Position numbers and translations under genes: made by a program. A stretch of DNA of 63,568 nucleotides, taken from Thermoanaerobaculia bacterium (GTDB taxonomy: Bacteria > Acidobacteriota > Thermoanaerobaculia > Gp7-AA8). Where the stretch lies: contig JBKJQB010000024.1 in NCBI GenBank assembly GCA_046594105.1, positions 1-63,568 of the forward strand. Direction: 5' to 3'. Every line of letters begins with the position of its first letter. Position 1 is the stretch's first letter. Under the pieces are notes generated by a model. The model was given only the letters and a program-made list of their open reading frames with translations, did no database searches and had not been told where the DNA came from. Positions 5,546-37,135 of this stretch are shown here, piece after piece.

Positions 5546-6346
5546 ATGCAGACGCTGCTTGCCTTTTACGCCCTGGCCATCGGCGCAATCGTCGGCAGCT
5601 TTCTCAACGTGGTCATTCACCGGTACCCGCGTGAAGAATCCATCGCCTTCCCCGCCAGCCACTGTCCGCACTGCAACACGCCGATCCGCTGGTACGACAA
5701 CGTTCCCGTCCTCAGCTTCCTGATCCTGCGGGCACGGTGCCGCGCCTGTGCCGAACCGATTTCCGTCCGCTATCCGCTGGTCGAGCTGGCTAACGCGCTG
5801 CTCTACCTCGCCATTTTCCTGCGCACTGGTGCCACCCTCGGCTTCCTGCCGCTCGCCGCGGCTGCCTCGATGATCATCGCCCTCATCTACATCGATGCCG
5901 ACATCCAGATCCTGCCGGACGTCATCGACCTGCCGGGCATCCTGGTGGGACTTTTCGCAGGATGGCTCGGGCTGGGGACTCTCTATCCGGGACTGGTGCT
6001 GGCCACTTCCCTGCTCGACTCTCTCCTCGGCGCGCTCTTCGGCGCGTCGGTTCTTCTCGCCGTGATCGGCCTCTACTGGCTGGTGCGGCGGGTGGAGGGA
6101 ATGGGACAGGGCGACGTGAAGATGCTGGCCATGATCGGCGCCATCCTCGGCTGGCGCGCCGTGCCGGGCGTCCTGCTGGTGGCCTCCATCACCGGTGCGC
6201 TCATCGGCATTCCCGCAGCGATGCGCAGCGGCCGCGGGATGCAGCTGGCCATCCCGTTCGGCGTCTTCCTCGGATTCGCCATGCTGATCGTGCTGTTCTT
6301 CGGACAGACTCTGGCGGGCTGGTACCTTTCGCTGATCGTGCGGTGA
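5546..6346 (+). CDS. pilD: Prepilin peptidase / N-methyltransferase (peptidase A24)
   Basis: GSFLNVVIHRYP, Zn-binding CPHC and CRAC, catalytic Asp motifs (IDAD, GMGQGDVK), IPFGVFL. Confidence 0.96.
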   Translation: MQTLLAFYALAIGAIVGSFLNVVIHRYPREESIAFPASHCPHCNTPIRWYDNVPVLSFLILRARCRACAEPISVRYPLVELANALLYLAIFLRTGATLGFLPLAAAASMIIALIYIDADIQILPDVIDLPGILVGLFAGWLGLGTLYPGLVLATSLLDSLLGALFGASVLLAVIGLYWLVRRVEGMGQGDVKMLAMIGAILGWRAVPGVLLVASITGALIGIPAAMRSGRGMQLAIPFGVFLGFAMLIVLFFGQTLAGWYLSLIVR

Positions 6347-6652: not shown

Positions 6653-6697
6653 CAAATCCGCATAAAACCTGGGAGTTTCTTGAAAGCTGGGAAACAG

Positions 6698-6968: not shown

Positions 6969-8039
6969 CTACGAACTCGCCTTCTCGGCGTCCAGCGCGG
7001 CTTTGAACAGTTCTTTGTCGATGGCCTTGTCGTAAGCCGCGCGCGCGCTGACCTTCTTCGCTTCGAAGAGTTGCTTGATCGACGAGTCCATGTCGATCAT
7101 CCCTTCGCGGATGCCGGTCTGGATGGCGGAGGTGATCTGCGGCGTCTTTCCCTCGCGGACCATGTTCCCGATGGCCGGTGAGGCGAACAGGATCTCCAGG
7201 GCGGCCACGCGGCCTCCTCCGATTTTCGGCATGAGCTGCTGCGCCACGACGCCACGAATCGTTTCGCCGAGGACGTTGCGGATGCCTTCCTGCTCCCCGG
7301 CGGGGAACACGCTGATGATGCGATCCATGGTCTTGGCCGCGTTGTTGGTGTGCAGGGTGCCGAAGACCAGCGTGCCGCGCTCGGCGGCGCTCAGGGCCAT
7401 GGAGATGGTCTCCACGTCACGCATCTCTCCGACCAGGATGAGGTCGGGATCTTCGCGGCCGGCCGCCTTGAGCGCCTCGGAGAAACTGGCCGCGTGGGAA
7501 CCGATCTCCCGTTGATGGATCAGGCATTTTTTGTTCGGGTGCACGAACTCGATAGGATCTTCGATGGTGATGATGTGCAGACTGCGCGTCTCGTTGATCA
7601 GATCGATGATCGCCGCCAGCGTGGTGGACTTGCCCGATCCGGTCGGACCGGTCACCAGCACCAGCCCGCTGCGGAACTGCGCCACGCGCTTGACCTGAGG
7701 CGGCAGCCCCAGCTGGTCGATGGTCATGATCTTGGTGGGGATGACCCGGAAGACGGCACCGGCGCCTCGCTGCTGGCGGAACAGGTTGACCCGATAGCGG
7801 GCCACGCCGGGGATCTCGTAGGAGAAGTCGATGTCGCCGCTCTTCACATACTCAGCCCACAGCTTGGTCGCCGTGATGGGCTGCAGCATCTCCGTGAAGT
7901 CGGCCTCGGTGACCACGCGGTAGCGGATGGTCTCGATCTCGCCGGAGGCGCGCAGCATGGGGGGACGGCCCACGGTGAGGTGGAAGTCCGAGGCCCCGCG
8001 GTCATTCATCAGCTTGAGGAAGCGATCGATTTTCTGCAT
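6969..8039 (-). CDS. pilT: Type IV pilus retraction ATPase PilT/PilU family
   Basis: ASDFHLTVG, Walker A GPTGSGKST, TIEDPIE, Walker B PDLILVGEMRD, GTLHTNN, AIGNMVRE. Confidence 0.95.
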   Translation of the reverse strand: MQKIDRFLKLMNDRGASDFHLTVGRPPMLRASGEIETIRYRVVTEADFTEMLQPITATKLWAEYVKSGDIDFSYEIPGVARYRVNLFRQQRGAGAVFRVIPTKIMTIDQLGLPPQVKRVAQFRSGLVLVTGPTGSGKSTTLAAIIDLINETRSLHIITIEDPIEFVHPNKKCLIHQREIGSHAASFSEALKAAGREDPDLILVGEMRDVETISMALSAAERGTLVFGTLHTNNAAKTMDRIISVFPAGEQEGIRNVLGETIRGVVAQQLMPKIGGGRVAALEILFASPAIGNMVREGKTPQITSAIQTGIREGMIDMDSSIKQLFEAKKVSARAAYDKAIDKELFKAALDAEKASS

Positions 8040-8040
8040 G

Positions 8041-10545
8041 TCAGGAGCTCGCCTTCAGAAACTCTGCTGGCACCATCGATTCGAAATCCTCTTTCTTCAG
8101 CGCAGCCATGTACGCAGTCTCGCCGCTGATCTCGCCGCGCTTGACCAGATCGCGCAGCGCCTCGTCGAAGGTCTGCATGCCCAGGCTCTTGCCGATCTGC
8201 ATGGCCGAATAGATCTGGTAGGTCTTCTCGTCCCGGATCATGTTGGCGATGTTGGGCGTGCCTTTGAGCACTTCGAAGACCGCCACCTGCTTCCGTCCCT
8301 GCTTCGCCGGCAGCAGGCGCTGGGCGATGATGTATTTCAGCGACTCGGAGAGCGAAGCGCGGATCTGCGGCTGCTGATCGATGGTGAAGCTGGAGATGAT
8401 GCGGTCGATGGCTTTGGGGGCGCTGGTGGAGCTGAGGGTGCCCAGCACGATGTGACCGGTCTCCGCCGCCGTGAGGGCGAGCAACACCGATTCGTTGTCG
8501 CGCAGCTCCCCGATCACGATCACGTCGGGATCTTCGCGGAGAGCTGCTCGCAGGGCGCGGGCGAACGACTGGGTGTGCGATCCGATCTCCCGCTGGTTGA
8601 TCAGCGAATTTTTGAACGGATGCACGAACTCCACGGGATCTTCCATCGTCAGCACGTGCGCGTTGTGGGTTTCGTTGAACAGGTTGACGAACGCCGCCAG
8701 CGTGGTCGACTTCCCGGAGCCGGCAGGCCCGCAGATGATCACCAGCCCCTGGTGGTAGTCGGCGATCTCGGAGAGCTGCGCCGGCAATCCCAGCTCGTAA
8801 ACCGTCGGAGGCTTCTCCGCGATCACCCGGAACACCGCGTTATAGCCTTTGTGATCGAGGAAGACGTTCGCTCGATAACGGCCACCCTGCGGGATGTAGT
8901 ACGAGAAGTCGATCTGCCGCTTGGTCTGCAGCGTCTCCCATTGCGGTGCGGTCAGGATCTCCTTGATCATGGCCTCGGTCTGCGGTGCGGTCAGCGGCTC
9001 CGCCTGCGCCCGGATCAGATCGGCCGCCATGCGGATGATCGGCGGCTGGCCCACCGACAGATGGAAATCCGATCCGCCCTGATTGCGCGTGGCGATCAGG
9101 TAGCTGTTCAGTTGCGGCCCGCCCGCGGTTGCCTGCGCCACCAGCGCCGCAGCCCGGATCGCGCTGAGATCGGCCGTCGGGCCCTTCGATTTTTTCGCCG
9201 CGGCGTCGATCAGATCGAGAACACGAGTCTTCACGTTCCGATCGGGATCGTTGGTGGCCATCTGCGTGAGCGCCGTCAGCACCTGTGTATGAGGCATCAG
9301 GTGCAGCGCCTCGGCCACGGCGATGCGCACCTCCGCCTTCGGATCTCCCAGCAGCCGCCCCAGAGCGGGAAGCGCGCGCATATCCCCGATCTTGCCCAGC
9401 GCCTCAACCGCCGACCATTTCGCCTCGGGATCAGCCAGCGCTTCAACCAACGCGTCCACCGCACGCGGATCCTTCAGATTGCCGAGCGTGTCTGCAGCGG
9501 CCAGACGGATCCACCAGTCGTCATCCTTGAGCAAAGGGATCGTGGCCGGGACGATTCGCGGATCGTCGAACGCTCCGGCGACGGCCACCGCAGCCGAGCG
9601 GATTTCCGGATCGGCGTCCGAGAGCAACGCAATCACCGGCTCGATCAAGGCGGCGCCGAAGACTCTGAGGGACTCCAGCGCGCGCTCGCGCACGAAGCCG
9701 GCCAGCGTTTTGGAAAACTCGAGGTAGCGGCGGATGACCGGATCAGGGTCGCCCAGCCCCATCAGGATCTTCACCACCGTGGTGCGGATTCCCGCATCGC
9801 CCGAGGCGATCAAGGGCAGGAGTTGATCCACGATCTGCGGACCGGCCTGCGCTCCCAGCCGGGTCAGCCCGGCAATGATGGCCTGCTGCAGCGCGTACGA
9901 GGCGGTGGGGAGTTGGGCGACGAGGATTCCGGCGGAGGAGGGCGTGACGTTCGCGGCCAGCACCTCCAGCGACTTCTCCCGGATGAGAGGATCTTCATCT
10001 TTTGCCAGTTTCTGCCAACGGGCGATGGCCTTCTCGTCGATGGGCAGCGGAACCAGTTTCGCGATGTAGGCCAGTCGCTCTTCTGCCATGCCTGCGTCGG
10101 CCAGCTCCCAGAGGATCGGCTCCATCTGCTTGTTCACCGGCGCTTCCAGAAGGATCTTGCGGGCGATGCCCTGCATCTCCCGGATCGCCGGCGTGGACTT
10201 CTCCTCGAACTTCAGAACGGTGTCGGCCAGCCGGCGCTCCAGACCGGGCAGACCGAGCGCGAAGAGGAAGGGCACCGCGCCTCGCATGGCCACATCCGGC
10301 TTCCCTCTCGCTTCCCCGAGAAAGAGATCGACGGTCTCCGGGTCGCGCAGACGCTGCACCAGTTTGGCTCCCGCGTCGCGCACCGGACGGTCGGGTCGGA
10401 ACAGCATCCACATGACGTCGCGCGCCTTCAGTCCTTCCGCGGTGCTCAGCTGCGTGAGCATCGCGTCTCGTTCTTCCACTGAGCCGAAGCCGCGGTCCGC
10501 CGCCTTTTTCAAAGCTTCGCGGAGATCCGATCCGAACATTGCCAT
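8041..10545 (-). CDS. HEAT-repeat / PilT-ATPase fusion protein (834 aa)
   Basis: About 480 aa of HEAT/PBS-lyase-like helical repeats (e.g. DDDWWIRLAAADTLGNLKDPRAVDALVEAL), then a PilT domain (GPAGSGKST, TMEDPVE, PDVIVIGELRD). Start reassigned to ATG 10545. Confidence 0.88.
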   Translation of the reverse strand: MAMFGSDLREALKKAADRGFGSVEERDAMLTQLSTAEGLKARDVMWMLFRPDRPVRDAGAKLVQRLRDPETVDLFLGEARGKPDVAMRGAVPFLFALGLPGLERRLADTVLKFEEKSTPAIREMQGIARKILLEAPVNKQMEPILWELADAGMAEERLAYIAKLVPLPIDEKAIARWQKLAKDEDPLIREKSLEVLAANVTPSSAGILVAQLPTASYALQQAIIAGLTRLGAQAGPQIVDQLLPLIASGDAGIRTTVVKILMGLGDPDPVIRRYLEFSKTLAGFVRERALESLRVFGAALIEPVIALLSDADPEIRSAAVAVAGAFDDPRIVPATIPLLKDDDWWIRLAAADTLGNLKDPRAVDALVEALADPEAKWSAVEALGKIGDMRALPALGRLLGDPKAEVRIAVAEALHLMPHTQVLTALTQMATNDPDRNVKTRVLDLIDAAAKKSKGPTADLSAIRAAALVAQATAGGPQLNSYLIATRNQGGSDFHLSVGQPPIIRMAADLIRAQAEPLTAPQTEAMIKEILTAPQWETLQTKRQIDFSYYIPQGGRYRANVFLDHKGYNAVFRVIAEKPPTVYELGLPAQLSEIADYHQGLVIICGPAGSGKSTTLAAFVNLFNETHNAHVLTMEDPVEFVHPFKNSLINQREIGSHTQSFARALRAALREDPDVIVIGELRDNESVLLALTAAETGHIVLGTLSSTSAPKAIDRIISSFTIDQQPQIRASLSESLKYIIAQRLLPAKQGRKQVAVFEVLKGTPNIANMIRDEKTYQIYSAMQIGKSLGMQTFDEALRDLVKRGEISGETAYMAALKKEDFESMVPAEFLKASS

Positions 10546-10629
10546 GAAGGGACGGAGTATACGGTCTCTCTCCTGATCAAGGCGATGGTGTCCACCCGCG
10601 GGCCAACCCGTTTGGCCTACACTTTCGCG

Positions 10630-12339
10630 GTGGAGACTTCGGTTCAGGCACCGCTGACACGGATCGGATTCCGTCGCGACGTGCGACTGTTTCTCACCGG
10701 CCTGGTCGGCTTCCTGGTGGTCCTCATCTTCACGCTGCTGCTCCTGCTGCGGGCCAATCTGTCGAGCAGGGAGGAGTCCCTCCATCGCTCTCAGCAGATG
10801 ATTGCGGACGTGGCCGCGGAGAGCGTCAACCGCACCTCGGCCGGCCTCTCCGACCAGGGAGCGCAGCTACTCTTTCTGCGGGGACGGTTTGGAATCGCCG
10901 GCCTGGAAATCGTCCGCCGCGATGGAGGCCGGGTGGTGTCCGGCGCGCGGAGCGGCCAGTTTGACGAGGTGACCCGGCTGGTCGGGCCGGGCACGCTGCT
11001 GCTGCGCTTCGACTCCAGCCAGCGCCGCGAGGCTCACCGCGACTTTCTACTCACCGCCGCCATCTGCATCGCCGCGGCCAGCCTCGGTGCGAGCCTGCTC
11101 CTCTTCTATCTACCGCGCATCACCCGTCCCATCGAGGCCATGCTCGATCATGCCCGCGAGCTCGGCGCCCCGGGCGATCAGGAGGAGACGGCCTATCTCA
11201 TCGATACCTTCCGCAACTCGATTGCCACGCTGAAGACGCAGGAGGCCGAGCTCAAGCAACTCCACGATCGCGAGAAGACCCGCGCGGATGATCTGGAGCG
11301 GGTTACCGCTGCGCTCACCCGGAGCCTGACCTCCGGACTGATCGCCGTCGATGCCGATGGGTTCATTCTGGAGATGAATTCTGCGGGACGCGAAATCCTT
11401 CGCATCGACCCAGCGGCCCTGGTGAACGGAGGGAGGCTGGAGACCATCGTTCCCCTGACGCGTTTCCGGGGAGCGCTTGAGGATTCTTTCCGCGAACAGA
11501 GCGCGGTCAGTCGCATCGAGATCGAGGACGTGCATTCCGACGGCGACGCGGTCAGCATCGGCCTGACCACCGTCCCACTGCGCAACGAGTTTGAGACATT
11601 CCTCGGCTTTCTCGCGCTGTTCACCGACCTCACGCCGATTCGCAGTCTGGAGAGCCGCGTTCAGGACATGACCACGCTGGCCCAGCTCGGCGAGATCTCG
11701 GCGGGCATCGCGCACGAGTTCCGCAGCTCGCTCTCCACGATTCTCGGCTACACCCGACTGGCCCGGAAGGGAGGAGTGGGCGAGGTCGCCGAAGGCCGGC
11801 TGGCCAGCGCCGAGAAGGAGGCATCGCTGCTTCTGCAGGCCATCGAACGGTTGCTGGCCTTCGCGCGGCCCGTCCAGCTGCAGACGGAACCGCTCGACCT
11901 TCGAGAGCTCGTCAGCGAGCAGGTGCGCCAGTTCCACGAAATGGCTCCCGACGTCCCGGTGACCCTCTCCGGTCCTTCCGTAATGATCGACGGCGATCGC
12001 GTGCTGCTCAATCGAGCGGTGGAGAATCTGCTGCGCAATGCCGTCGATGCGGTGCGGGAAAAAGCCGACGGCGGCGGCGTTCAGGTGGCCATCTCGGAAA
12101 AACCAGTGCCCACACTGACCATCACCGATCAGGGAGTGGGCTTCGATCCATCGGAGACCGCGCGCCTTTTCCTTCCCTTCCAGTCGAACAAGCCGAATGG
12201 ATTCGGGATGGGGCTGCCCCTGGCGAAGAAGATCGTGCTGGTCCACGGCGGATCGATCCGCCTGCAGGGCCGCCCGGGCGAGGGCAGCGTCGCCGTGGTG
12301 GAGTTCGCCCCGGCTGCGCCAGCGTCCCCCACGGCGTGA
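10630..12339 (+). CDS. PAS-domain sensor histidine kinase, PilS/NtrB-like
   Basis: Two TM segments, PAS-like region, H-box IAHEFRS, N-box ENLLRNA, DQGVG, GFGMGL. GTG 10630 chosen because TACACT lies 6 nt upstream; the alternative is ATG 10585. Confidence 0.88.
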   Translation: METSVQAPLTRIGFRRDVRLFLTGLVGFLVVLIFTLLLLLRANLSSREESLHRSQQMIADVAAESVNRTSAGLSDQGAQLLFLRGRFGIAGLEIVRRDGGRVVSGARSGQFDEVTRLVGPGTLLLRFDSSQRREAHRDFLLTAAICIAAASLGASLLLFYLPRITRPIEAMLDHARELGAPGDQEETAYLIDTFRNSIATLKTQEAELKQLHDREKTRADDLERVTAALTRSLTSGLIAVDADGFILEMNSAGREILRIDPAALVNGGRLETIVPLTRFRGALEDSFREQSAVSRIEIEDVHSDGDAVSIGLTTVPLRNEFETFLGFLALFTDLTPIRSLESRVQDMTTLAQLGEISAGIAHEFRSSLSTILGYTRLARKGGVGEVAEGRLASAEKEASLLLQAIERLLAFARPVQLQTEPLDLRELVSEQVRQFHEMAPDVPVTLSGPSVMIDGDRVLLNRAVENLLRNAVDAVREKADGGGVQVAISEKPVPTLTITDQGVGFDPSETARLFLPFQSNKPNGFGMGLPLAKKIVLVHGGSIRLQGRPGEGSVAVVEFAPAAPASPTA

Positions 12340-12404: not shown

Positions 12405-12433
12405 TTGACGTAAACTGTTGCAAGCCATGTAGT
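12405..12433 (+). promoter_or_regulatory. Sigma70-type promoter candidate
   Basis: TTGACG-N17-TGTAGT. Confidence 0.5.
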
Positions 12434-12452
12434 TGAAGGGCCACGCGTCGAG

Positions 12453-12468
12453 TGGCACCTGCGTCGCA
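12453..12468 (+). promoter_or_regulatory. Sigma54 -24/-12 promoter candidate
   Basis: TGGCAC-CTGCG-TCGCA: GG-N10-GC spacing is intact, one mismatch to TGGCAC-N5-TTGCW. The predicted start site would fall close to the ATG. Confidence 0.45.
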
Positions 12469-12483
12469 AAAGGGAGCATCCTC

Positions 12484-13059
12484 ATGAACAAGCAAGATGG
12501 TCGTTCGGAAGGCGGATACAGCATCGCAGAGTTGTTGACGGTGGTGGCCATCGTCGGCGTTCTCTCGCTGGTGACCGTGCCCTCCTTCATCGGTTACTTC
12601 AATTCCAACAAGGTGAAGGCGGCCATGCGCACCTTCAGCTCTGACCTGCGCACCGCGCGGTCCACCGCGATCAGCCAGAGCCGGGAAGTCAAACTCACGT
12701 ACAAGACCGGGACGAAACAACGGGCCTACGACCTGTATCTGGGCGACCGGGCCTTCGGGACCGTTCCCTCGGCGAACTGGACCCGCCTGACCGGACCAGG
12801 TTCCAACCCTCCAAAGCCCAGCAAGATCCTCGACGATGTCGTCTATTTCCCAGCGGACAGCGTGACCACGCCGCAGACGTTCACCGACCTGGATACCACT
12901 GCGGACGGCTGGCTGGACGTCATCTTCTTTCCTGATGGACATGCCCAGCTTCCGACGGCGGCAACCTCCGGGACCATCACCATCAAGACGGACATGAACG
13001 TGCCGAAGTCTTCCTACGCAATCACCATCAGCCCCAGTGGACGCGTTCTGGCGCAATGA
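12484..13059 (+). CDS. Minor pilin, FimT/FimU/GspH-like
   Basis: Class III signal GG|YSIAELLTVVAIVGVL; LRTARSTAISQ and ITISPSGRV are FimT-like motifs. Confidence 0.85.
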   Translation: MNKQDGRSEGGYSIAELLTVVAIVGVLSLVTVPSFIGYFNSNKVKAAMRTFSSDLRTARSTAISQSREVKLTYKTGTKQRAYDLYLGDRAFGTVPSANWTRLTGPGSNPPKPSKILDDVVYFPADSVTTPQTFTDLDTTADGWLDVIFFPDGHAQLPTAATSGTITIKTDMNVPKSSYAITISPSGRVLAQ

Positions 13060-13679
13060 GCCGGAGCAGCGAGGAAATGATGAAGAGACGAGAAGCGAGC
13101 GGCTACAGCCTGATCGAAGTCCTGATCGCCATCGCCATCACCAGCGTGGTGCTGCTGACGGTGATCACCCTGTTCTACATGGGGCGGCGCAACGTCTACA
13201 GCGGCAAGCAGCAGACCATCGCCGTCGCCTCGGGCACCCAGATTCTGGAAGACCTCTCCACCATGACAGCGCAGGATCTGGGATCCAACTTCAACATCAA
13301 TGACGGCACGGCGCTCAGCACGGTCACGCTGCAGGGAGTGGCGGATGGCGTGAACGGGCAGCTGGCCTTCACCAACAGCGTCGGCCGTGACTCCAGCAAC
13401 TGTACCGTCGCTTCGACGACCCCGTACGCCATCACCTGCACGGACGATCCGAACGGGTACATGACCAAATGGCTGCGATTGTTGTCGCCCGCCGGAGACC
13501 GGAACGAAGTGCTCACCAACCCGGTGGTCGGCCTCGTCTTGCGGCCCCGCAATCCCACCGATAACGCCAAGGCATTCAGCACCGCCCGGTTCATCCGGGC
13601 ACGCGTCTATGTCTCGTGGGAAGAAGCACAGAATCGTCGCCGCTACGCGTTCTTCGACACCACGAAAGTGAACCGGTAG
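13056..13679 (+). CDS. Minor pilin, PilV-like
   Basis: SG|YSLIEVLIAIAI prepilin motif; second position in the operon. Confidence 0.8.
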   Translation: MSRSSEEMMKRREASGYSLIEVLIAIAITSVVLLTVITLFYMGRRNVYSGKQQTIAVASGTQILEDLSTMTAQDLGSNFNINDGTALSTVTLQGVADGVNGQLAFTNSVGRDSSNCTVASTTPYAITCTDDPNGYMTKWLRLLSPAGDRNEVLTNPVVGLVLRPRNPTDNAKAFSTARFIRARVYVSWEEAQNRRRYAFFDTTKVNR

Positions 13680-13691
13680 CCAGGAGCAGCC

Positions 13692-16600
13692 ATGAAACCA
13701 ACCGCGCGTCACCAGCAACGGGGATTCACACTCGCAGAGATCCTGGTCACCACGGCGATCTTCGCCGTCATCATGATCGCCGCCCTTTCGGTCTACGACC
13801 AGAGCAACCGTGTGTTCAAGTCGGGAACCGAGTCGGCGGACATGCAGCAGAGCACACGGATCGGCTTCGACAAGCTGGTGGCCGATCTGCGCATGGCCGG
13901 CTTCGACTACAACCGCGGCGGCACTCCCACGAAGACCGGGGAATTTCCGCAACAGGACGAGCAGATCGAATACGCCGGCCCCACCGCGGTGGCCTTCCGG
14001 GGGAATTTCAATTACAACACCGCCTCGTCAAACGGAAACGGGCTGGAACCAACCTTCACTCCGAAGGATCCCACCACCAACGCGGCGATCTTCCCCTTCG
14101 TCACCACCAGCGATGACGAGATCGTCGCCTACGTCACCCGTTCCGCGGACAACACCCAGAACACCGGGTCCATCTCGTTCTACGTGGACGCCGGGAAACC
14201 CCGCAATGTGTATCCCGGCGGTGCCGCGGAAGCGCTGATCACCATCAGCAGCGCTCTCTGCGCCACCTGCGGCGTCGACACCAGCAATGCCAACCCTCCT
14301 TACACGCTGTATCGAATGACCCTGAACGACTACAAGAACCGGCAACCGGGAACGCCGATCGCCGAGAACATCCGCAGCCTCAACTTCTTCTACTACACCG
14401 ACGCGAATGGCCAGACGGTGCTCAAGAACAACGATGCCACGGACATCACCGCGACCCGGAATGCCGATGGCTCCACCGTCCCGGCCACGGCCTCGGTCAC
14501 CATTTTGAATTCCGACGGCACCACGTCGACCACCACCTCGAACACCGGGGCCATCGGAGGGGCGGGACAATACGACCCGGCCAGCCCCGGCACAGCGGCG
14601 AATTTCGTCGACCGGCAGCAGCGCACCACCATCCAGTCGGTGCGCGTGAATGTGATCGGCATGAATGCCAACCCGGAGCCGGGCTATACCCAACGCACCG
14701 AGTCCATCGCCCGCATCAAAAACTACCGGCAATACGCGCTGTCCGCCTTGATCGTGCCCCGGAACCTCGGACTGACCGGGTTCCCCGAGCCCAGCAACTC
14801 CGCGCCTTCGGTTCCGGTGATCACCGGCATCTGCACCGCGCACTGCGCCGCACCCGTCCTCTGCTGGGCCGCCCCGACCGGGGGCGGACCGGTCGATCAG
14901 TACCGCATCGAATGGGACAGCGTGGCCACAGGCTCCTTCCCCAACTCGCTCATCGTGACCGATCCCACCGTCACCACCGCGATCATCCGCGACAACGGCA
15001 TCATGGATCCGTCGATCACCTGGTATTACCGCATCTTCGCGCAGAACGACAACGGTTCGAGCCCGCCGCAAAACCCCACGCCGGCCCAGCCGAAGAACTC
15101 CACCCGGCCCCTGCCGCCCGCGCCCGGCACCATCACCACAAGCAACGCCGTGAATTACGCGGTGACCGTGGGATGGGTGGCCCCCTCCAACAACGACCCT
15201 GCCAAGGCCACCATGAACTGCACCGGGGCCGGCTGCAGCACCGATCCCAGCACCATCCCATCGCAGGAGATCATCAAGTACCGCGTGTATCGCGGGCTCA
15301 CTGCGACGTTTGATCCCACCAACCCTGCCGAGAGCTCCAAAGTCCTGGCCGCTACCACCGGTGTCCAGCCGACATCCGCAGGCCCCGGGTCGCCGATCTC
15401 CTGGGCAGATTCGCCGAGCACCTCGGCCTTCCCCTCTGGAACCTGCGTGGATTACTACTACCGGGTGCAGGCGGTGGATCGCTGCTTCTCCAGCAACAAC
15501 TACAACACCAGCGGCGACCTGAACGATTCGATCAGCACGATTTCACCGCCTCTCGGTTCGAATGCGATTCTGGGCCGGACGAACGACCTCTCCACGGCCA
15601 AAGCGCTGGGGCCGGTGAATCTGAAAGTGAGCAGCGCCACCTCTGCCTGCCCAGCACCCGCATCGCTCAACTGCAAGGTAGATTTGAGCTGGTCCAAGGT
15701 GACCGCCGACAATGCCGGCAACGCCATCGGCGTCGATAAGTACCGCCTGACCCGTTACCGAAAGAAGTATCTCGATCCTGGATTCGTACTCGACACCACG
15801 TTCAATCTCACCGGCTCGCTGGACATGCCTGGTTACTCGCAGAGCGGCACTGGCCTGGTTGGAAAAACCGACACGACCGGCCCCGCCATCGACACGGCAG
15901 ACGGCGCTCCCTGGTACTACCAATATACGGTCACCGCGAACGACTGCCGGCTGGGTCTTCCCTCCAATACGGCGGACTTCCCGACGTTGTGCGCGGGCAC
16001 TCCCTCCACAGTCAGCCAGGTCGGCGCTTCGGGCGGAGGCTCCGGTGACACCGTGGCCCAGGCCTGGGTCATGAATAGTGGGGACCTTCTCCGCATCACC
16101 GCTGCTGCGGGGTTGACCATCGCGAACGTCAAATACGATGTGTTCGCCTATCCCTCCGGTACGGTTGCGGACTCGGTGACCACAACAGCCTCACCGACCT
16201 TCCCCTACGTCTGGTCCGACCGCACCGACAACCAGATCTACCAGATCCGGATCGCCATCACCGACTCCACTGGCTGCACCGAGGTCCATGTGAAGTATGT
16301 GAAGGACGAGCAGGCTGCGCCCTGCGCGTTCGGCAACGTGGCCCTCACGGCATTCACCAGCACAACCTCCGGCCCGACCCGGTCGCTTTTCGAAACCTAC
16401 ACGGTGACGAACGTAGCCACGGAGGCACTGACCTTCAGCGCGAAGCCGATCAAAGTCACATGGGCTATCCCGGCCGGCTTCGCCGCCAGCCACAGCGACA
16501 TGACTCTCGATGACATCACCTACTCACTGGGTGGCTCCGACGGAGGCGCCAATTCGGGCCCCGGAACGGTCACCCGGTCAATCCCGGCCGCAGCGATCCT

Positions 16601-16796
16601 CTCTGCGAGTTCGTCGATGACGGTCCGGCTGCACTGGACTTTCAGAAAGAACGACGACAACCCCACAACCCTGGCCGGTCAACCGCTCTCGAAGATCTGC
16701 CTCGACTACACCATCCTCAGTGAGCCAGGCATCACCAAACACTGCAACCTGGTCGGGCAGAGCGCCAGCACCACCAACCCGACTTCGTGCGATTAG
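13692..16796 (+). CDS. Giant PilW-like minor pilin with fibronectin-III-like and Cys-rich beta domains (1034 aa)
   Basis: RG|FTLAEILVTT, PilW-like QQSTRIGFDKLVADLRMAG, then three FN3-like signatures (W..P...Y.(I/V)...YYY.V.A) and many Cys pairs. Confidence 0.8.
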   Translation: MKPTARHQQRGFTLAEILVTTAIFAVIMIAALSVYDQSNRVFKSGTESADMQQSTRIGFDKLVADLRMAGFDYNRGGTPTKTGEFPQQDEQIEYAGPTAVAFRGNFNYNTASSNGNGLEPTFTPKDPTTNAAIFPFVTTSDDEIVAYVTRSADNTQNTGSISFYVDAGKPRNVYPGGAAEALITISSALCATCGVDTSNANPPYTLYRMTLNDYKNRQPGTPIAENIRSLNFFYYTDANGQTVLKNNDATDITATRNADGSTVPATASVTILNSDGTTSTTTSNTGAIGGAGQYDPASPGTAANFVDRQQRTTIQSVRVNVIGMNANPEPGYTQRTESIARIKNYRQYALSALIVPRNLGLTGFPEPSNSAPSVPVITGICTAHCAAPVLCWAAPTGGGPVDQYRIEWDSVATGSFPNSLIVTDPTVTTAIIRDNGIMDPSITWYYRIFAQNDNGSSPPQNPTPAQPKNSTRPLPPAPGTITTSNAVNYAVTVGWVAPSNNDPAKATMNCTGAGCSTDPSTIPSQEIIKYRVYRGLTATFDPTNPAESSKVLAATTGVQPTSAGPGSPISWADSPSTSAFPSGTCVDYYYRVQAVDRCFSSNNYNTSGDLNDSISTISPPLGSNAILGRTNDLSTAKALGPVNLKVSSATSACPAPASLNCKVDLSWSKVTADNAGNAIGVDKYRLTRYRKKYLDPGFVLDTTFNLTGSLDMPGYSQSGTGLVGKTDTTGPAIDTADGAPWYYQYTVTANDCRLGLPSNTADFPTLCAGTPSTVSQVGASGGGSGDTVAQAWVMNSGDLLRITAAAGLTIANVKYDVFAYPSGTVADSVTTTASPTFPYVWSDRTDNQIYQIRIAITDSTGCTEVHVKYVKDEQAAPCAFGNVALTAFTSTTSGPTRSLFETYTVTNVATEALTFSAKPIKVTWAIPAGFAASHSDMTLDDITYSLGGSDGGANSGPGTVTRSIPAAAILSASSSMTVRLHWTFRKNDDNPTTLAGQPLSKICLDYTILSEPGITKHCNLVGQSASTTNPTSCD

Positions 16797-16808
16797 GAGT
16801 AGACGACA

Positions 16809-19382
16809 ATGAAACGCACATCACGTAGAAAACGACTCCTTCGCAACGACCGAGGCTCCGCGCTGCTGGTGAGCCTCATGGTCATCGTCGGGCTGTCGTT
16901 GCTCGGCCTCGGCTTCGTGGCCATCTCGGAGACGGAGACCGCCATCGCCAAGAACCAGCTGTCGGTCGTGCAGACTCAGGCTGTGGCGGAGGCGGGAGCC
17001 AAGCTCGTCGTGGAATGGTTCCAGGATCCAGTCTGGGCCGAGCTAAATGCAGGATTGCCCTTGAATGACGGGTCGGTGAACGCCAGTCTGGCAGCCATCA
17101 AAACCAACCGGGTGATCGCCGGGACCAACCCCATCAATGGCGTGTACAAGCCAGCCGCCAACATCCGGCTTCTGGAGAAACCATACCGGCCGAAACCGGA
17201 GAATCGATTCTATGGAGACGAGAACTCGGCCGATCTGATCATCAACCGGACCACCGACATCACCACCATCGACACCATCAACAACGTGTTGCTCGGAACG
17301 ACTGCGGAAGAACGCCGCAGTGGCGAGGTCACCGAGGTCAAGATTTACGCGCCGCCCATCGTGGGTGGAACGCTGCTCACCGACGGCACCACCACGAACG
17401 CGGACGGAACACCGCGGCGTTTCTGGGGCGGCACGGCAGAACGATTCGGCGTGGCCACCATCAAGGTCACCGCCACCATGTTCCGCGACCGCACGTTGAC
17501 CGGCGCGGCTCGCATGGCAGCATCGAACATCATGGCCTCCCATGCCGTGCGGCTGGTGGTCGGAGAGATTCCCCTCCCCATCCCCGGCGGCCCCATCCAG
17601 AGCAACACCTCGATTTCGTTCGGCGGCAACTTCGTCGTGCACTGGGGCAATGAGACGTCGACGACCGACCTCACCAACAAGCGGAATCCGAGCTCGCTCC
17701 CCTGGGCCAACGCCTACGAGCGCCCGCACTTCGAGCACGGCTACGAGCCGGGCCAAAGCATCTCCCAGATTCAGCTCACCTCCGGCGGATCGGGCTACCC
17801 GGGAGGAACGACCGTCAATATCGTCGGGGGGGGGGGCTCATTGGCGACCGCCACTGCCACTGTGACCGGCGGGGTCATCACCGCGGTCACTCTGACCGCG
17901 CGCGGCACGGGCTACTCCACCTCATCGCAGCCAACCATCACCTTCACGGGGGTCGGGGGCTCGGGTGCCTCCGCCACTCCCATCGTCGGAGCGGAAGTGT
18001 GGCCCACCACGCAGGCGTCCTTCGAGCAGGAAAACTATCTCAACGAAGTTCTCAACAAGACCTTCGAGGATCCCTGGTTCGGTTCGCGAGCCGTGCGCGA
18101 CAACTTCATCGATGGGGCCACAGCGTCGGGAGTTTTTCCGCAGTGCTACCCCTACTCGGCGTTATCGAACGAAACCAGTCCTCCCGGTTCCTACTTCTTT
18201 CAGTGGCAGGCAGCCAACACCTATCCATTGTTGAAAAAGGTCGTGTTCCCGACGATCAAATACGACTTCTGGAAGAGGATCGCCTCGCAGGGCCGCGGCT
18301 ACAAGGGGATCTACTACTTCAGCTTCGACAAGGCGGCCGGCAGCGGCTACAAGAAGGGTGGAACCGGTACCACTAAGCCGATGGCGTACTGGGCCAATTC
18401 TCTCAAGACCGGGCCGGGCGGGCGCCTCGGCCCCGGCGTGTACTTTTTCGACACCGTCGATGCGATCAACCCGCAGAATCTGATCGGCGGCGCACGCACT
18501 GCCCAGTTCACCCCCGCGGAGTCGTGGAACTCCTCCGATTACGGCTCTTCCTTCCTGATGGAGGGGTTCCTCTACGCGAACAACTCATCCTTCGGCACGC
18601 AGGGACAGGGCAGCTCCGCGGTAACGATCCAGGCAAACTTCCCCGGTGAGCCGTATCGCGATGTCGGTTGCCCCCTGTTTGACCTGGCCTCCAACGACTG
18701 GAACCGTACCTGTGCAGGAGCCATTTGTACGAAGGGCGCCGGCGATGGAATCTTCACCTCCGATGACCTGAATGGAAACCAGAGATTCGATGTCGTCACC
18801 ATGCCTGCCCCGGCCTGGCTGTCGAATGACCCCGGCCCCATTGCTCATGCTGCCGGAAGCACGTACATCGTCAAGACCTGGAAGTCGCCCTTGCAGGCCA
18901 CTGCCGACTACGGCGCACCCTGCACCGTTCCGGCCGTTGGATACAACGGGACGAATCCCGGCCCCAACGACTGCTCGGAGCCGCACGAGCCGTACCTCAA
19001 TCTGATCTACACAGGCACGGCCACCGATCCGCTCACCGTCGGATGGCAACCGTCGAACGGCTCCCAGACGTTTCTGAAGAAGAACACCGGCATCACCTGC
19101 ACCGCTGCGTCCGCGCAGACGGACTGCACCTCGAACGCTTACGACCTCGATGGCTCGCAGGTGCCCATCGACGTCATCCTCGACGGCATCTTCTACAACG
19201 AGGGCGGCTACGACACGCAAGGCAATACCGCCTACTACGGCTCGCTGCTCATCAATGGTGTGGTCACCGGAACCGGTACTCCCGACATCTGGTTCGACGA
19301 GAAACTCATCAAGGGCACCTGGGCTCCCCCGAACATGCCCCGGGTCATCGTCTACAACGAACAAACGGACGAAGAACAGTAA
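16809..19382 (+). CDS. Giant PilX-like minor pilin (857 aa)
   Basis: RG|SALLVSLMVIVGLSLLG lacks Glu5 (PilX/GspK hallmark); AQAVAEAG-type PilX N-domain; long Gly/Thr/Asn-rich extracellular region. Confidence 0.8.
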   Translation: MKRTSRRKRLLRNDRGSALLVSLMVIVGLSLLGLGFVAISETETAIAKNQLSVVQTQAVAEAGAKLVVEWFQDPVWAELNAGLPLNDGSVNASLAAIKTNRVIAGTNPINGVYKPAANIRLLEKPYRPKPENRFYGDENSADLIINRTTDITTIDTINNVLLGTTAEERRSGEVTEVKIYAPPIVGGTLLTDGTTTNADGTPRRFWGGTAERFGVATIKVTATMFRDRTLTGAARMAASNIMASHAVRLVVGEIPLPIPGGPIQSNTSISFGGNFVVHWGNETSTTDLTNKRNPSSLPWANAYERPHFEHGYEPGQSISQIQLTSGGSGYPGGTTVNIVGGGGSLATATATVTGGVITAVTLTARGTGYSTSSQPTITFTGVGGSGASATPIVGAEVWPTTQASFEQENYLNEVLNKTFEDPWFGSRAVRDNFIDGATASGVFPQCYPYSALSNETSPPGSYFFQWQAANTYPLLKKVVFPTIKYDFWKRIASQGRGYKGIYYFSFDKAAGSGYKKGGTGTTKPMAYWANSLKTGPGGRLGPGVYFFDTVDAINPQNLIGGARTAQFTPAESWNSSDYGSSFLMEGFLYANNSSFGTQGQGSSAVTIQANFPGEPYRDVGCPLFDLASNDWNRTCAGAICTKGAGDGIFTSDDLNGNQRFDVVTMPAPAWLSNDPGPIAHAAGSTYIVKTWKSPLQATADYGAPCTVPAVGYNGTNPGPNDCSEPHEPYLNLIYTGTATDPLTVGWQPSNGSQTFLKKNTGITCTAASAQTDCTSNAYDLDGSQVPIDVILDGIFYNEGGYDTQGNTAYYGSLLINGVVTGTGTPDIWFDEKLIKGTWAPPNMPRVIVYNEQTDEEQ
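17826..17836 (+). repeat. G11 homopolymer inside the pilX-like CDS
   Basis: GTC GGG GGG GGG GGC = V-G-G-G-G; 11 consecutive G. Confidence 0.95.
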
Positions 19383-19394
19383 TCGCGGTTCGTT

Positions 19395-19429
19395 CGCGGC
19401 GGGCAGGACTTCCTGCCCGCCGCGTTTTT
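19395..19429 (+). terminator. Intrinsic terminator of the minor-pilin operon
   Basis: CGCGGCGGGCAGG-ACTT-CCTGCCCGCCGCG 13-bp stem followed by TTTTT, 12 nt after the pilX stop. Confidence 0.85.
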
Positions 19430-19722
19430 GGGGGTTCCAGCCCATGGTCAGCGCGTGCACCGCTCAGCAAAGAGACCCACAGGGGTTCCCGACGCAGTCG
19501 GCGAAACGCCGTGAGTCTGCCGGCGCAAGCCGGCAATAGGTCCGTAGACCCCGGCTTCAGCCGGGGGCGGTCGAGCTCCCGACCCTGCGGCGCTGCGGAA
19601 TCCGCCCCCTTCACCCACCGTTGTAAACTACTCCCCTCCCGCATGAGTCCCGGCGGGAAATCCCTCGGCAATCGGAACGTTTGGCATCATCGGCCGTCGT
19701 AAAGGCAGGCCACAGAAGGACA

Positions 19723-20931
19723 ATGCCCGAATTCATCATCAGAGCCGGAACGCCCGATGGGCAGATCGTGGAGCGCCACGTCCAGGCTCTGAATTCGCGT
19801 GCCGCCCAGGAAGAATTGACCCGCCAGGGCATGCATGTCTTCGAGGCCAAGCGCGGGACCATGCACCTGCGCGACCTCCTGCCGCGCGGCGGCAAGATCA
19901 TCTCCACCGAACGATTCCTCGTCTTCAATCAGGAACTGCTGGCCCTGGTCCGGGCCGGACTGCCTATCCTGCAGTCCTTCGACATCATGCTGGAGCGGCA
20001 GAAGAACCTGCGCTTCCGCGACGTACTCATCGACATCCGGGACAAGCTGAAGTCCGGCATCTCGCTGTCCGACGCCTTCGCCTCTTACGGCGACCAGTTT
20101 CCTGCCATCTACTCGACCTCCATCCGGGCGGGAGAGCGATCCGGCGACCTGGAGGGCGTGCTCAAGCGTTTTCTTCGTTACCAGAAGATCATCGTCAACC
20201 TGCGGAAGCGGGTCATCGGCGCAATGATCTACCCCGCAGTGCTGATCGTTCTGTCGGCGGCCATGGTGTTCATCATGCTGACCCGGGTCATCCCGAAGTT
20301 CGCGGAGTTCTACGCCGGGTTCGGTGCCGAGTTGCCCTGGTTCACCACTTTGATGATCAAGGTGGCCAACCTCCTGAATCAGAACCTGATTATTCTCGTC
20401 GTGGTCTCCGTCGTCGGATTCGTCTTTTTCCGGCGCTGGGCATCGACCACCGGTCGCCTGCTTTACGACCGTTTCAAACTGGGAATCCCCCTGGTCGGGG
20501 GGATCCTTCACCGCTTCGCCATTCTGCAGTTCACCCAGTCGCTGGGGACTCTGCTCTCGGGCGGCACTCCCATGGTCCCGGCCATCGAGATCGCCTCGCA
20601 GTCGGTCACCAATCAGCTGGTGGCCACCCGGATCTACAGCATCATCCAGAACGTCCGGAACGGCGAGCCACTGTGGCGCTCGCTGGAGAGCACCAACGCC
20701 GTGAGCGACCTCGCCGTCGAAATGATCAAGGTCGGAGAGTCCACCGGAGCCTTGACGGAAATGCTGTCCAACGTCAGCGAGTTCTACGACGAGGAGATCG
20801 AGGCGCGGCTCACTCGTCTGGTGGCGGCCATTGAGCCGCTCATCCTGGTCTTCATGGGCATCGTGATCGCCACGCTGCTCTACGCCTTCTATCTCCCTCT
20901 GTTCCAGCTTTCGTCAGTGACACAGCAATGA
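19723..20931 (+). CDS. pilC: Type II secretion F / PilC inner-membrane platform protein
   Basis: Two T2SSF domains (AGERSGDL..., VGESTGALTEML...EP). ATG 19723 with GAAGGA RBS. Confidence 0.93.
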   Translation: MPEFIIRAGTPDGQIVERHVQALNSRAAQEELTRQGMHVFEAKRGTMHLRDLLPRGGKIISTERFLVFNQELLALVRAGLPILQSFDIMLERQKNLRFRDVLIDIRDKLKSGISLSDAFASYGDQFPAIYSTSIRAGERSGDLEGVLKRFLRYQKIIVNLRKRVIGAMIYPAVLIVLSAAMVFIMLTRVIPKFAEFYAGFGAELPWFTTLMIKVANLLNQNLIILVVVSVVGFVFFRRWASTTGRLLYDRFKLGIPLVGGILHRFAILQFTQSLGTLLSGGTPMVPAIEIASQSVTNQLVATRIYSIIQNVRNGEPLWRSLESTNAVSDLAVEMIKVGESTGALTEMLSNVSEFYDEEIEARLTRLVAAIEPLILVFMGIVIATLLYAFYLPLFQLSSVTQQ

Positions 20932-20966
20932 CGCGCCCCGACGGCGCCTGACCTTCAAAGAGACCA

Positions 20967-22589
<1,623 letters not shown>

Positions 22590-22655
22590 TGCGCGAGCCT
22601 TCAGTCATGACGAGCCTGCTGCATCGCGGACCCTCTCCTTTGAGTCACCGAACGA

Positions 22656-22711
22656 CCCCTCATCCGCCTTCGGCACCTTCTTCCCGCTGCGGCGGGGAGA
22701 AGGAACTCGAT
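22656..22711 (+). repeat. R3 REP-like element
   Basis: CCCCTCATCCGCCTTCGGCACCTTCTTCCCGCTGCGGCGGGGAGAAGG; related copies at 29912 (-) and 29988 (+). Confidence 0.85.
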
Positions 22712-22862
22712 CGTAAGGGGCCGCGTCCAGTCTGTGTCCTCAGAAGACGCGCAGACGGCGAAGGGCCTGCCTGTGAGAAGAAGCGAGGTCGACTTTCTCT
22801 CAATCCTTCCTTTCCAAGCTCCTTCTCCGCAACTCTGACTGTGCATCCGTCGTCCAACTGAC

Positions 22863-23759
22863 ATGGCTCGATCTTTTCCACCGGACGTGATCGTCCTCGA
22901 TACCGATGCGCTCGTGCATGCGCGCGTGGGACGGGGCGTGAAGAACCCGCAGATCATGCAGGCCAAGAGCTACCGGCTGGCGTCCGACACGTTCCTCCCC
23001 TCCGTGGTCACGCCGGAACTGGCTTCCGACGTGGGGCTGGCCGAGGCGGTGCGGAGGATGAAAGGGGAGACGGGCCGCTGGAGCAAGGCGTCGCTGCTGC
23101 TTCCTGACTCCTGGTTCCGCATGAACATCCTGGAGATCCCCACGCTGCCCGACAAGAGCGACGAGGCAGACGCCATGATCCGGTGGAGCCTCAAGCGCAC
23201 CATGCCGCTGGAGGGTTCCCAGCTCCGTCTGGCCTACGAGGTGCTCGACCGCGGCGCGAGCGGCGTTCGCGTCCTCGCCGTGAGTGCGGTGGAAAAGACT
23301 CTGGTCGCGATCGAACGAGTCTTCGAAGCGGCCGGCATCGAGATCGTCCTGATCGAGCCGGTAGGCCTGAACATCTGGAATGCCGTGACCGTCCGCGAGC
23401 CCTCCACCGCCGGGGACCGCATCTTTTTTTACGTCCGCGATCAGGACTTCACCACCGCCGTGTTTCGTGGTGGTGCTCCCCTGTTCATCCGCTCGCGAAA
23501 CCTCAATGCCCAGCGCAGTCTCCAGCAGGAGATCAAGCTCTCCGCCTCCTATCTCCGCGACACCCTGGGCACGGAGACGATCGAGAACTGTTACCTCTGT
23601 GGCAACCAGCTGGCTGCCGGACTGGCGGATGAAATCGCGACGGAGTTCTCCGCGCCGGTGCGGGTGGTGGCTCTGCGCGACTTCACCGAGCACACCCCCG
23701 AGGGTGTGGGAGCATACGAAGCGGAGCTGACTGCCTGCACGGGAGTGTTCACAGGTTGA
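22863..23759 (+). CDS. pilM: PilM/GspL-like cytoplasmic alignment protein
   Basis: Position before pilN and pilO; actin-like-fold PilM-type segments (LLLPDSWFR...WSLKRTMP). Confidence 0.7.
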   Translation: MARSFPPDVIVLDTDALVHARVGRGVKNPQIMQAKSYRLASDTFLPSVVTPELASDVGLAEAVRRMKGETGRWSKASLLLPDSWFRMNILEIPTLPDKSDEADAMIRWSLKRTMPLEGSQLRLAYEVLDRGASGVRVLAVSAVEKTLVAIERVFEAAGIEIVLIEPVGLNIWNAVTVREPSTAGDRIFFYVRDQDFTTAVFRGGAPLFIRSRNLNAQRSLQQEIKLSASYLRDTLGTETIENCYLCGNQLAAGLADEIATEFSAPVRVVALRDFTEHTPEGVGAYEAELTACTGVFTG

Positions 23760-24331
23760 AACCGATCCATCTGAATCTCGCCGCGCGCCCTCACCGCGAT
23801 TACCGTCCGTATGTCGCCGCCGTGGTGTTCAGCTCTCTGCTGATCGCCTACCTCACCGTGACGAACTTCGACACTTGGTACCGCTATCGAAATGAAACGC
23901 AGACCACACGGACCAGGATCGAGTCGCTCGATCACCAGACCGAAGAGGAGCAGCACCGCACCGACGCAGTGAACCAGCGACTGCGGGCCGTCGACGTGAA
24001 AGTGCTGGCCACCCAGACCCAGTTCGCCAATGCCCGGCTGGCCGAGCGGGCCTTTTCCTGGAGCGAGCTTCTGGATCGACTGGAGCGGGTATTTCCCAAC
24101 AACGTTCGCATCGACTCGATCGCGCCAAGTTTCGGCAAGACCGGCCTGGTGCACCTCACGCTGCAATGCGTAGCCAAGACTGGTGACGGGTTGGTCACCA
24201 CGCTCGATCGCTTCAATCGCGACGGCCATTTCGCCAACGCGTTCCCCGCCAACGAAGACCATGCCGAACAGGGATACCGTTTCCTCCTCGGCGTGGACTA
24301 CCGGCCGTCGATCGCGAGGTCGGTCGAATGA
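23756..24331 (+). CDS. pilN: PilN-like alignment protein
   Basis: IHLNLA N-terminal motif, one TM helix, coiled coil, WSELLDRLERVFP. Confidence 0.8.
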   Translation: MKPIHLNLAARPHRDYRPYVAAVVFSSLLIAYLTVTNFDTWYRYRNETQTTRTRIESLDHQTEEEQHRTDAVNQRLRAVDVKVLATQTQFANARLAERAFSWSELLDRLERVFPNNVRIDSIAPSFGKTGLVHLTLQCVAKTGDGLVTTLDRFNRDGHFANAFPANEDHAEQGYRFLLGVDYRPSIARSVE

Positions 24332-25631: not shown

Positions 25632-25720
25632 CGTTTGGACCGTTTGGACCGTCAGAAGCAACGTGTGAGAGAGTGGCCCGGAACGGACACCCGCGCACAG
25701 GACTCAGGACTGAAAACGAA

Positions 25721-37072: not shown

Positions 37073-37135
37073 GCTAAATCAGATGCCCGTCCGTTGATCC
37101 CTCCAATCGGAAGGCCGCGCTACAATCCCGGCATC

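Follow-up and report, generated by a model that had tools for sequence, protein, structure and literature searches.

Replacing the second His-box histidine of Pseudomonas aeruginosa PilT (PaPilT) with alanine (H229A) abolishes twitching and lowers ATPase activity, while phage sensitivity and a weak PilU-dependent function remain (PMC6858323, PMC10187167, PMC12607626). The corresponding change at the first histidine (H222A) reduces twitching, and retraction persists about three times slower (PMC10187167; bioRxiv 10.1101/2020.02.12.946426); this mutant is also tabulated as likelier to fall off the pilus machine. PilT and PilU coordinate via ring-to-ring contacts (bioRxiv 10.1101/2025.10.30.685630; PMC13584747), and in Myxococcus xanthus deletion of the PilT paralogue MXAN_6706 causes a partial motility defect (PMC13584747). 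Current research asks why many bacteria maintain more than one PilT paralogue and how a pair of retraction ATPases is coordinated. Here we describe two adjacent pilT-family genes on a 63,568-nucleotide (nt) contig of a Thermoanaerobaculia bacterium (assembly GCA_046594105.1, contig JBKJQB010000024.1), the whole of which we call the window. One encodes an 834-residue protein in which a HEAT-type alpha-solenoid precedes a PilT module (the fusion), and the other, directly downstream, a 356-residue PilT (the partner). The pair amounts to a natural experiment: adjacent PilTs each lacking a different His-box histidine, one of them with what would be a built-in docking arm.

The pair is real and widely conserved, and our literature search on HEAT-PilT fusions or acidobacterial PilT found nothing relevant; its database entries carry generic PilT names. 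Several classes of soil Acidobacteriota share the His-box changes as fixed traits, and HEAT-PilT architecture extends to Myxococcota. Based on sequence comparisons, we propose with moderate confidence that the fusion is an accessory PilT paralogue co-produced with the main PilT, and that its solenoid regulates retraction by docking to the partner ring, to the PilC/PilM platform or to a factor involved in polarity or signalling.

A HEAT solenoid ahead of a complete PilT module

We place the start of the fusion gene at position 10545 because a longer open reading frame (ORF) of 914 aa, starting at 10785, overlaps a divergent histidine-kinase gene (10585-12339), and because orthologues are only 824-865 aa long (median 833); the longer ORF was rejected. 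The protein divides into a solenoid, a linker (SKGPTADLSAIRAAALVAQATAGGPQ) and a PilT module (Table 1). Pfam models assign HEAT_2 to three stretches of the N-terminal part (1e-40; 137 bits against a cut-off of 27.7), along with HEAT (59 bits) and HEAT_PBS (44 bits), and T2SSE to the C-terminal part. An AlphaFold2 (AF2) model that drew on 26 orthologues folds residues 6-452 into a single unbroken alpha-solenoid, with predicted local confidence (pLDDT) mostly between 76 and 92 in 10-residue blocks. Structure and sequence searches match this region to generic HEAT scaffolds, including alphaRep designs, the PP2A A subunit and karyopherins. From the model and these matches, we therefore assign all of the N-terminal 450 residues to the solenoid, beyond the stretch flagged by Pfam. 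The N-terminus thus shows both marks of a HEAT-repeat protein, a repeat profile above cut-off and a fold of stacked helical hairpins.

The C-terminal part matches only PilT, PilU and DotB in the same searches. The NCBIfam model TIGR01420 (pilT_fam) covers residues 479-819 at model positions 2-342 of 343, scoring 412 bits against a cut-off of 319, and the partner likewise passes this PilT/PilU family score with an end-to-end match. Both proteins are nearer to PilT than to PilU: the fusion scores 321 bits against PaPilT (3jvu) and 221 bits against PilU (9n32), and the partner 371 and 222 bits. The partner is thus closer to canonical PilT, and it is the better conserved gene of the pair, with 117 orthologues at 84-89% identity (mean 85.8%). 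The ATPase modules of the two proteins share only 45% identity.

A single base separates the two genes, and a promoter and terminator scan of positions 6300-10900 found nothing beyond shuffle expectation, with no terminator between them. Two assemblies show read-through at this end of the gene: on one ENA contig the 3' end of a HEAT-PilT gene continues into the partner to give a single 582-aa product (P0280), and at locus L024 the fusion ORF (5980-9528) has no stop. As each comes from a single assembly, a sequencing indel is likelier than a real three-module fusion.

The first-pass annotation, made from the sequence alone, described about 480 aa of HEAT-like repeats ahead of a PilT domain, and a downstream PilT beginning 1 nt past the stop with its first His replaced. 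Both descriptions hold: solenoid and linker lead into PilT from residue 479, and the junction reads TGA-c-ATG, with Thr223 of the partner at the position of PaPilT His222. The architecture search that it suggested, HEAT_2 with T2SSE, finds both domains in the fusion and in all of at least 120 orthologues. Its premise that PilT and PilU are single-module proteins of about 350 aa is incomplete. The partner fits it, yet the fusion, with its 450-aa solenoid, does not, and in an exhaustive HMMER search over 1.84 billion cluster representatives all but 12 of the best 150 have at least 420 aa, a list that is skewed by the HEAT part of the query and is no census.

ATP-site motifs and the two altered His boxes

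The fusion aligns without gaps to PaPilT in the reference structure 3jvu, placing Lys612 at Lys136, Glu680 at Glu204, His698 at His222 and Ser705 at His229. Walker A, the Asp box and Walker B with its catalytic Glu are present in both proteins and invariant among their orthologues: the Asp box of the fusion reads MEDPVEF, and the partner carries GPTGSGKST, IEDPIEF and DPDLILVGEMRD, respectively. Neither protein has the two-histidine His box. In the fusion, Ser705 replaces the histidine that coordinates the gamma-phosphate in PaPilT, and in the partner the first histidine is missing (Table 1). The AIRNLIRE motif reads NIANMIRD in the fusion (4/8 identical) and AIGNMVRE in the partner (5/8 identical).

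Across the fusion's orthologues, His is absent throughout from the position equivalent to His229. Either Asn or Ser stands there in every one of the roughly 114 of 120 listed proteins whose His box was captured by our pattern, and in each of the 74 genome loci, out of 80, with a readable His box. Asn is commonest, and Ser occurs in 22-24 of the 120 listed, among them the proteins most closely related to that of the window; the codons for Asn (AAC) and Ser (AGC, as in the window) differ by one transition. The partner's His box follows the pattern AE[RK]GTLVF[GA]TLH[TK]N, with Thr at the first-His position in 119 of 120 proteins among the matches listed, and Thr or Met in the genome loci.

Elsewhere in its ATP site the fusion is strictly conserved. 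In an alignment of 26 orthologues, the invariant positions include Gly606, Pro607, Gly609-Ser613 (with Lys612) and Thr615 of Walker A; Glu635, Asp636 and Glu639; Asp672-Val675 and Val677-Asp683 of Walker B (with Glu680); His698; and Arg715. Mean identity of the orthologues to the window protein is 79.5% over the ATPase module and 54.7% over the HEAT arm. This pattern fits a constrained enzyme with altered gamma-phosphate sensing, not a decaying pseudo-enzyme.

These results bear on four statements of the first-pass annotation. Its reading of the fusion's His box as GHIVLGTLSST, with the second His changed to Ser, is borne out by the 3jvu alignment, and its statement that Walker A and Walker B are intact in both proteins agrees with our reading of the motifs. 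Its reading would have been refuted by orthologues that generally keep the second His, and none does; the replacement is mostly Asn, with Ser in a minority. Its suggestion of a "pseudo-ATPase", a label that implies that the Walker A Lys, the Walker B Glu or both have been lost, was overstated: both residues are invariant, as are the Asp-box Glu, the first His and Arg715.

Occurrence, gene pairing and pilus context

A word-indexed search of 5.8 billion proteins, which gives a lower bound, identified at least 120 full-length orthologues of the fusion, 63-94% identical and all with HEAT and T2SSE domains. Where database names are given, they read only "PilT" or "PilT/PilU family", and the sources are Acidobacteriota or Thermoanaerobaculia. 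The contig index has no exact record of the window's own protein. Among GTDB species genomes we found 80 loci, in Thermoanaerobaculia, Vicinamibacteria and unclassified Acidobacteriota metagenome-assembled genomes (MAGs). One acidobacterial-type HEAT-PilT lies on a 5.3-kb contig labelled as a Hyphomicrobium MAG (L065; CAXMOH010000040.1), which is probably mis-binned. Loci L016 and L024 lie on the complete chromosomes OY970380.1 and OY970284.1. Both the HEAT/PilT junction (around nt 9100-9190) and the stop/start (8039-8043) are crossed by separate soil-metagenome contigs, which differ there by substitutions but have no indels.

Of the 72 loci with room for the partner, 70 have it immediately downstream in the same orientation; four of these 70 partner genes are split by frameshifts, in apparent long-read MAGs. 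The gap between the two genes is -7 to +35 nt in about 50 loci and 59-520 nt otherwise, and in the 94%-identical relatives they share a 4-nt ATGA overlap. When we clustered neighbouring ORFs across the 80 loci, the partner was the sole consistently conserved neighbour. No conserved third gene emerged from these loci, as the clusters comprised the PilT pair, antisense artefact ORFs and one ORF of about 215 aa.

Some loci carry additional genes around the pair. The ORF of about 215 aa, which has a signal-peptide-like N-terminus, lies upstream on the same strand in 14 of the 80 loci; at L006 (3692-4273) it ends 21 nt before the fusion. In one sublineage (L001, L083, L055 and L066), fusion and partner are about 500 nt apart, and in L001 and L083 a gene for a 141-aa SnoaL_3/DUF4440 protein stands between them, overlapping the fusion stop by 4 nt.

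More distant relatives give the order in which these features arose. A HEAT-PilT protein 42% identical to the fusion (P0132) has both His-box histidines, and its gene overlaps by 4 nt that of a 390-aa PilT with Leu at the first-His position; the partner of a Polyangiales relative has Val there. From these states, the pairing and the partner's first-His loss are ancestral, and the fusion's second-His loss is later. A functional partnership of the fusion with the downstream PilT is well supported by their near-constant adjacency. In a Polyangiales MAG (L086, 9137-10085), the partner PilT downstream of a distant HEAT-PilT (P0143) is split into two ORFs, apparently by a frameshift, owing either to decay into a pseudogene or to faulty assembly. 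At this locus the fusion is closely preceded, on its upstream side, by a phage-type integrase.

In the wider HMMER search, the HEAT-PilT architecture of about 830 aa can be followed to relatives with only some 30% identity, and it includes distant proteins of about 820 aa in Myxococcota (Polyangiales). Among 35 representatives with the same architecture (clustered at 50% identity), the second His-box position is H in 14, N in 13, P in 4, Q in 2, R in 1 and K in 1. The Walker B Glu is E in 29, D in 4, Q in 1 and P in 1, and the Walker A Lys is retained in 34. Because 14 of the 35 still have His, the fusion architecture is older than the second-His loss. Catalytic residues have thus eroded repeatedly across the class as the P-loop persisted, which fits a low-turnover ATPase.

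PilT ATPases fused to HEAT, WD40, MshEN or a second PilT are common in metagenomes, and in databases they are flattened to "PilT". Further N-terminally extended types in our search include HEAT-PilT proteins of about 920 aa, a seven-bladed WD40 propeller joined to PilT (P0252, 937 aa) and an MshEN-HEAT-PilT protein (P0230, 1336 aa). Tandem proteins with two PilT modules also occur in metagenomes, at about 540-1020 aa and mostly above 700 (P0142, P0146, P0151, P0153, P0173, P0175, P0182, P0191, P0192, P0218 and P0232). One copy is often degenerate (Walker A GPTGHGKST, Walker B NPD or SPD, altered His box), and P0146 additionally carries an N-terminal DUF4388.

In the window, the pair lies within a complete type IVa pilus cluster, between a prepilin peptidase and the divergent sensor kinase (Table 1), where ORFs lacking a Pfam hit were assigned by position only. 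The HEAT-PilT pair and PilB are the only T2SSE-family genes in the 63 kb. Linkage to pilus genes holds in the window, in the 94%-identical relatives, which share its layout, and in six other loci, but these are a minority of the related loci.

Table 1. Coordinates of the fusion, its partner and surrounding pilus genes in the window.
Feature	Position (nt)	Strand	Evidence
HEAT-PilT fusion gene, 834 aa	8041..10545	-	ORF; Pfam HEAT_2 + T2SSE; TIGR01420 412 bits
HEAT-type alpha-solenoid, residues 6-452, ~27 helices	9190..10530	-	AF2 model; Pfam HEAT_2/HEAT/HEAT_PBS; Foldseek + PDB matches
Linker, residues 453-478, ~26 aa, solenoid to PilT N-domain	9112..9189	-	lower pLDDT (60-69)
Complete PilT module (N-domain + ATPase C-domain), residues 479-819	8089..9111	-	TIGR01420; 3jvu 321 bits
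Fusion Walker A GPAGSGKST (Lys612)	8704-8730	-	motif reading; family-invariant positions
Fusion Walker B DPDVIVIGELRD (catalytic Glu680 = PaPilT Glu204)	8497-8532	-	motif reading; invariant in family
Fusion altered His box GHIVLGTLSST, His698 kept, Ser705 (AGC, nt 8431-8433)	8425-8457	-	alignment to 3jvu
Junction: stop TGA 8043-8041, spacer base 8040, partner ATG first base 8039	8039..8043	-	sequence tcc TGA c ATG
Partner PilT, 356 aa	6969..8039	-	TIGR01420 434 bits; PaPilT 3jvu 371 bits; 117 orthologues
Partner His box GTLVFGTLHTN, Thr223 (ACG, nt 7371-7373) at PaPilT His222, second His kept	7344-7376	-	alignment
Prepilin peptidase (PilD-like)	5546..6346	+	Pfam A24_N_bact + Peptidase_A24
Divergent PAS-HisKA-HATPase sensor kinase	10585..12339	+	Pfam; arrangement kept in 94%-identical relatives
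Type IVa pilus cluster	12433..28734	+	Pfam GspH, N_methyl, T2SSF, T2SSE + MshEN, T2SSM_b, Secretin
Minor pilins	12433-19382	+	
PilC	19681-20931	+	
PilB (with MshEN)	20967-22589	+	
PilMNOP-like	22863-25631	+	
Secretin PilQ	25628-28207	+	
Pilin	28204-28734	+	

Two large proteins are encoded within the minor-pilin region, both on the forward strand. The first (13692-16796, 1034 aa) would be a giant minor-pilin-like protein, given its prepilin N-methylation motif and a weak match to fn3; the second (16809-19382, 857 aa) has no Pfam hit and is possibly PilY1-like by position. Homologues of both adjoin HEAT-PilT in L007, L035 and L084/L085, and L071 and L075 match the 857-aa protein only. Beyond the cluster, a 754-aa protein (35609-37873, forward strand) has a C-terminal chlorite-dismutase domain (residues 553-743) as its sole Pfam hit, with none in its 550-aa N-terminal part.

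A putative retraction-motor module, its alternatives and its known relatives

We suggest that the two genes form a conserved retraction-motor module of Acidobacteriota type IVa pili. In this model, the 356-aa gene would encode the main PilT, a working motor that may be slower or more loosely attached to the machine. The fusion would still bind ATP and cycle through conformations; with Asn or Ser in place of the His that senses the gamma-phosphate, it probably hydrolyses ATP slowly or needs a trigger to do so. The HEAT solenoid of 450 residues would be a docking arm, suspended from the ring on its N-domain face, and would tether or regulate the motor; its likeliest targets are the PilT produced alongside it, the PilC/PilM platform or a protein involved in polarity or signalling. 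The role of the fusion would thus be PilU-like, accessory and working through PilT, and its ancestry that of a PilT-clade paralogue. We rejected an identification of the fusion as PilU itself: its PilT score is higher, and its gene lies upstream of pilT, not downstream.

Several observations weigh against this proposal. The ATPase C-domain of the fusion is poorly modelled, with low confidence, and the AF2 model is uninformative on oligomers. Both proteins lack the equivalents of PaPilT Asp31, Arg123 and Asp242 (Ala507, Gln599 and Ser718 in the fusion; Ser32, Ser124 and Ser243 in the partner). These are ring-interface residues whose mutation impairs or alters P. aeruginosa PilT function, so the ring behaviour of the pair may differ from that of model PilTs. 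At most of the 80 loci, the ±6 kb around the pair contain no further pilus gene, and the flanking genes vary widely; outside the window's lineage, it is therefore homology that points to a pilus role. Finally, Asn or Ser may be a better gamma-phosphate sensor than the Ala of the published mutant, and might even be good enough for full activity.

A bolder form of the proposal, which we consider possible but unlikely, is an obligate two-component motor. Here a hydrolysis-impaired, ATP-sensing HEAT-PilT ring would act as a clutch or stator, its six arms gripping the partner ring or PilC/PilM, so keeping the motor on the machine and gating retraction. The partner's ancient loss of its first His would make such a tether necessary, given that H222A is prone to fall off the machine. 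If this is true, motor coordination has been solved here differently from PilT-PilU.

The last of the points above opens onto a different reading, in which Asn or Ser costs little and the fusion is a fully active second motor, an independent retraction or extension ATPase whose HEAT arm sets localisation or cargo. Polar residues sense the gamma-phosphate in other P-loop ATPases. In the fusion the remaining catalytic residues are invariant, the ATPase module is nearly as conserved as the partner, and the position is limited to two small polar residues within the clade. Moreover, since 14 of the 35 same-architecture representatives keep His, the HEAT-PilT architecture itself does not require impaired catalysis. 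Against this, PaPilT H229A loses twitching and ATPase activity, and the AIRNLIRE motif is only half kept. The wider class also has Pro, Gln, Arg or Lys at the second-His position, with the catalytic Glu sometimes Asp, Gln or Pro, which points to a relaxed demand for turnover. We regard a fully active second motor as doubtful.

A mixed-ring motor, in which both proteins build a common heterohexamer (perhaps by alternating) that has ATP sites of two kinds and either six or three HEAT arms, gains some support from the reciprocal His-box changes and the shared departures from PaPilT at the ring interface (D31 to A/S, R123 to Q/S and D242 to S/S). The near-universal adjacency of the genes, with stop and start overlapping or nearly so, is typical of subunits of one complex. 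Natural tandem PilT-PilT polypeptides (P0142, P0146, P0151, P0153, P0173, P0175 and P0182), often with one degenerate module, further indicate that hetero-pairs of PilT modules are structurally viable. However, the low identity between the two ATPase modules speaks against a common ring, and the known PilT and PilU are separate, stacking homohexamers (PMC13584747; bioRxiv 10.1101/2025.10.30.685630). Published PilT structures suggest that each histidine works in cis, on the same chain as the Walker A that it serves, in which case the missing residues would not complement each other. The two losses also differ in age, the partner's predating the fusion's, so they were not acquired together, and two loci have a fusion without an adjacent partner. 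We judge a mixed ring quite unlikely.

It is improbable that the pair serves a non-pilus process and that its location in the window's pilus cluster is incidental. The scarcity of pilus genes around most of the 80 loci and their variable flanks would fit such a role, but in model organisms, too, pilT is often found away from the pilus clusters. The PilT/PilU family model matches both proteins over its full length, and their best solved match is PilT. In the window, in the 94%-identical relatives and at six other loci the pair is embedded among pilus genes, and the window's cluster contains no other PilT. An assembly or frameshift artefact fusing a HEAT gene to a pilT gene, the test that the first-pass annotation had set for its own reading, is effectively ruled out by the recurrence of the 824-865-aa architecture at 80 genome loci and across at least 120 protein clusters of varied origin, and by independent soil-run contigs that cover both junctions without indels.

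Returning to our proposal of an accessory, HEAT-armed PilT working with a main PilT, the closest known protein for both genes is PilT itself (PaPilT 3jvu/3jvv; Geobacter PilT4 6ojx). Residues 479-819 of the fusion and the whole partner align to it end to end, equivalents of Arg239 are present, and in the window the genes stand within a pilus cluster. The fusion differs in its 450-aa HEAT solenoid and in Ser or Asn at His229, and the partner in Thr at His222.

Two other groups resemble the fusion in part. PilB and MshE are likewise secretion-family hexameric ATPases with an N-terminal add-on that docks regulators, and the PilB of the window has MshEN. MshEN is a small c-di-GMP-binding domain, unlike the 13-repeat solenoid of the fusion, and PilB and MshE belong to another ATPase clade that drives extension, not retraction. 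The alphaRep designs and the PP2A A subunit resemble residues ~150-450 of the fusion in repeat sequence and fold; as these are generic protein-binding scaffolds, the match indicates neither a pilus link nor a ligand.

PilU offers a functional parallel, as a second PilT-family ATPase encoded beside pilT; the accessory role through PilT that we propose for the fusion would be analogous to that of PilU (PMC6762196; PMC13584747; bioRxiv 10.1101/2025.10.30.685630). In contrast to the fusion, PilU lacks an N-terminal solenoid, has an intact His box (PMC13584747) and touches PilT by its C-terminus (bioRxiv 10.1101/2025.10.30.685630). M. xanthus MXAN_6705 and MXAN_6706 are adjacent, lineage-conserved PilT paralogues, one of which has a long N-terminus (PMC13584747). 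The N-terminus of MXAN_6705 is reported to be intrinsically disordered, not HEAT, and all M. xanthus paralogues are reported to have intact His boxes (PMC13584747). MXAN_6705/6706 is thus the closest analogue so far described of the acidobacterial HEAT-PilT pair.

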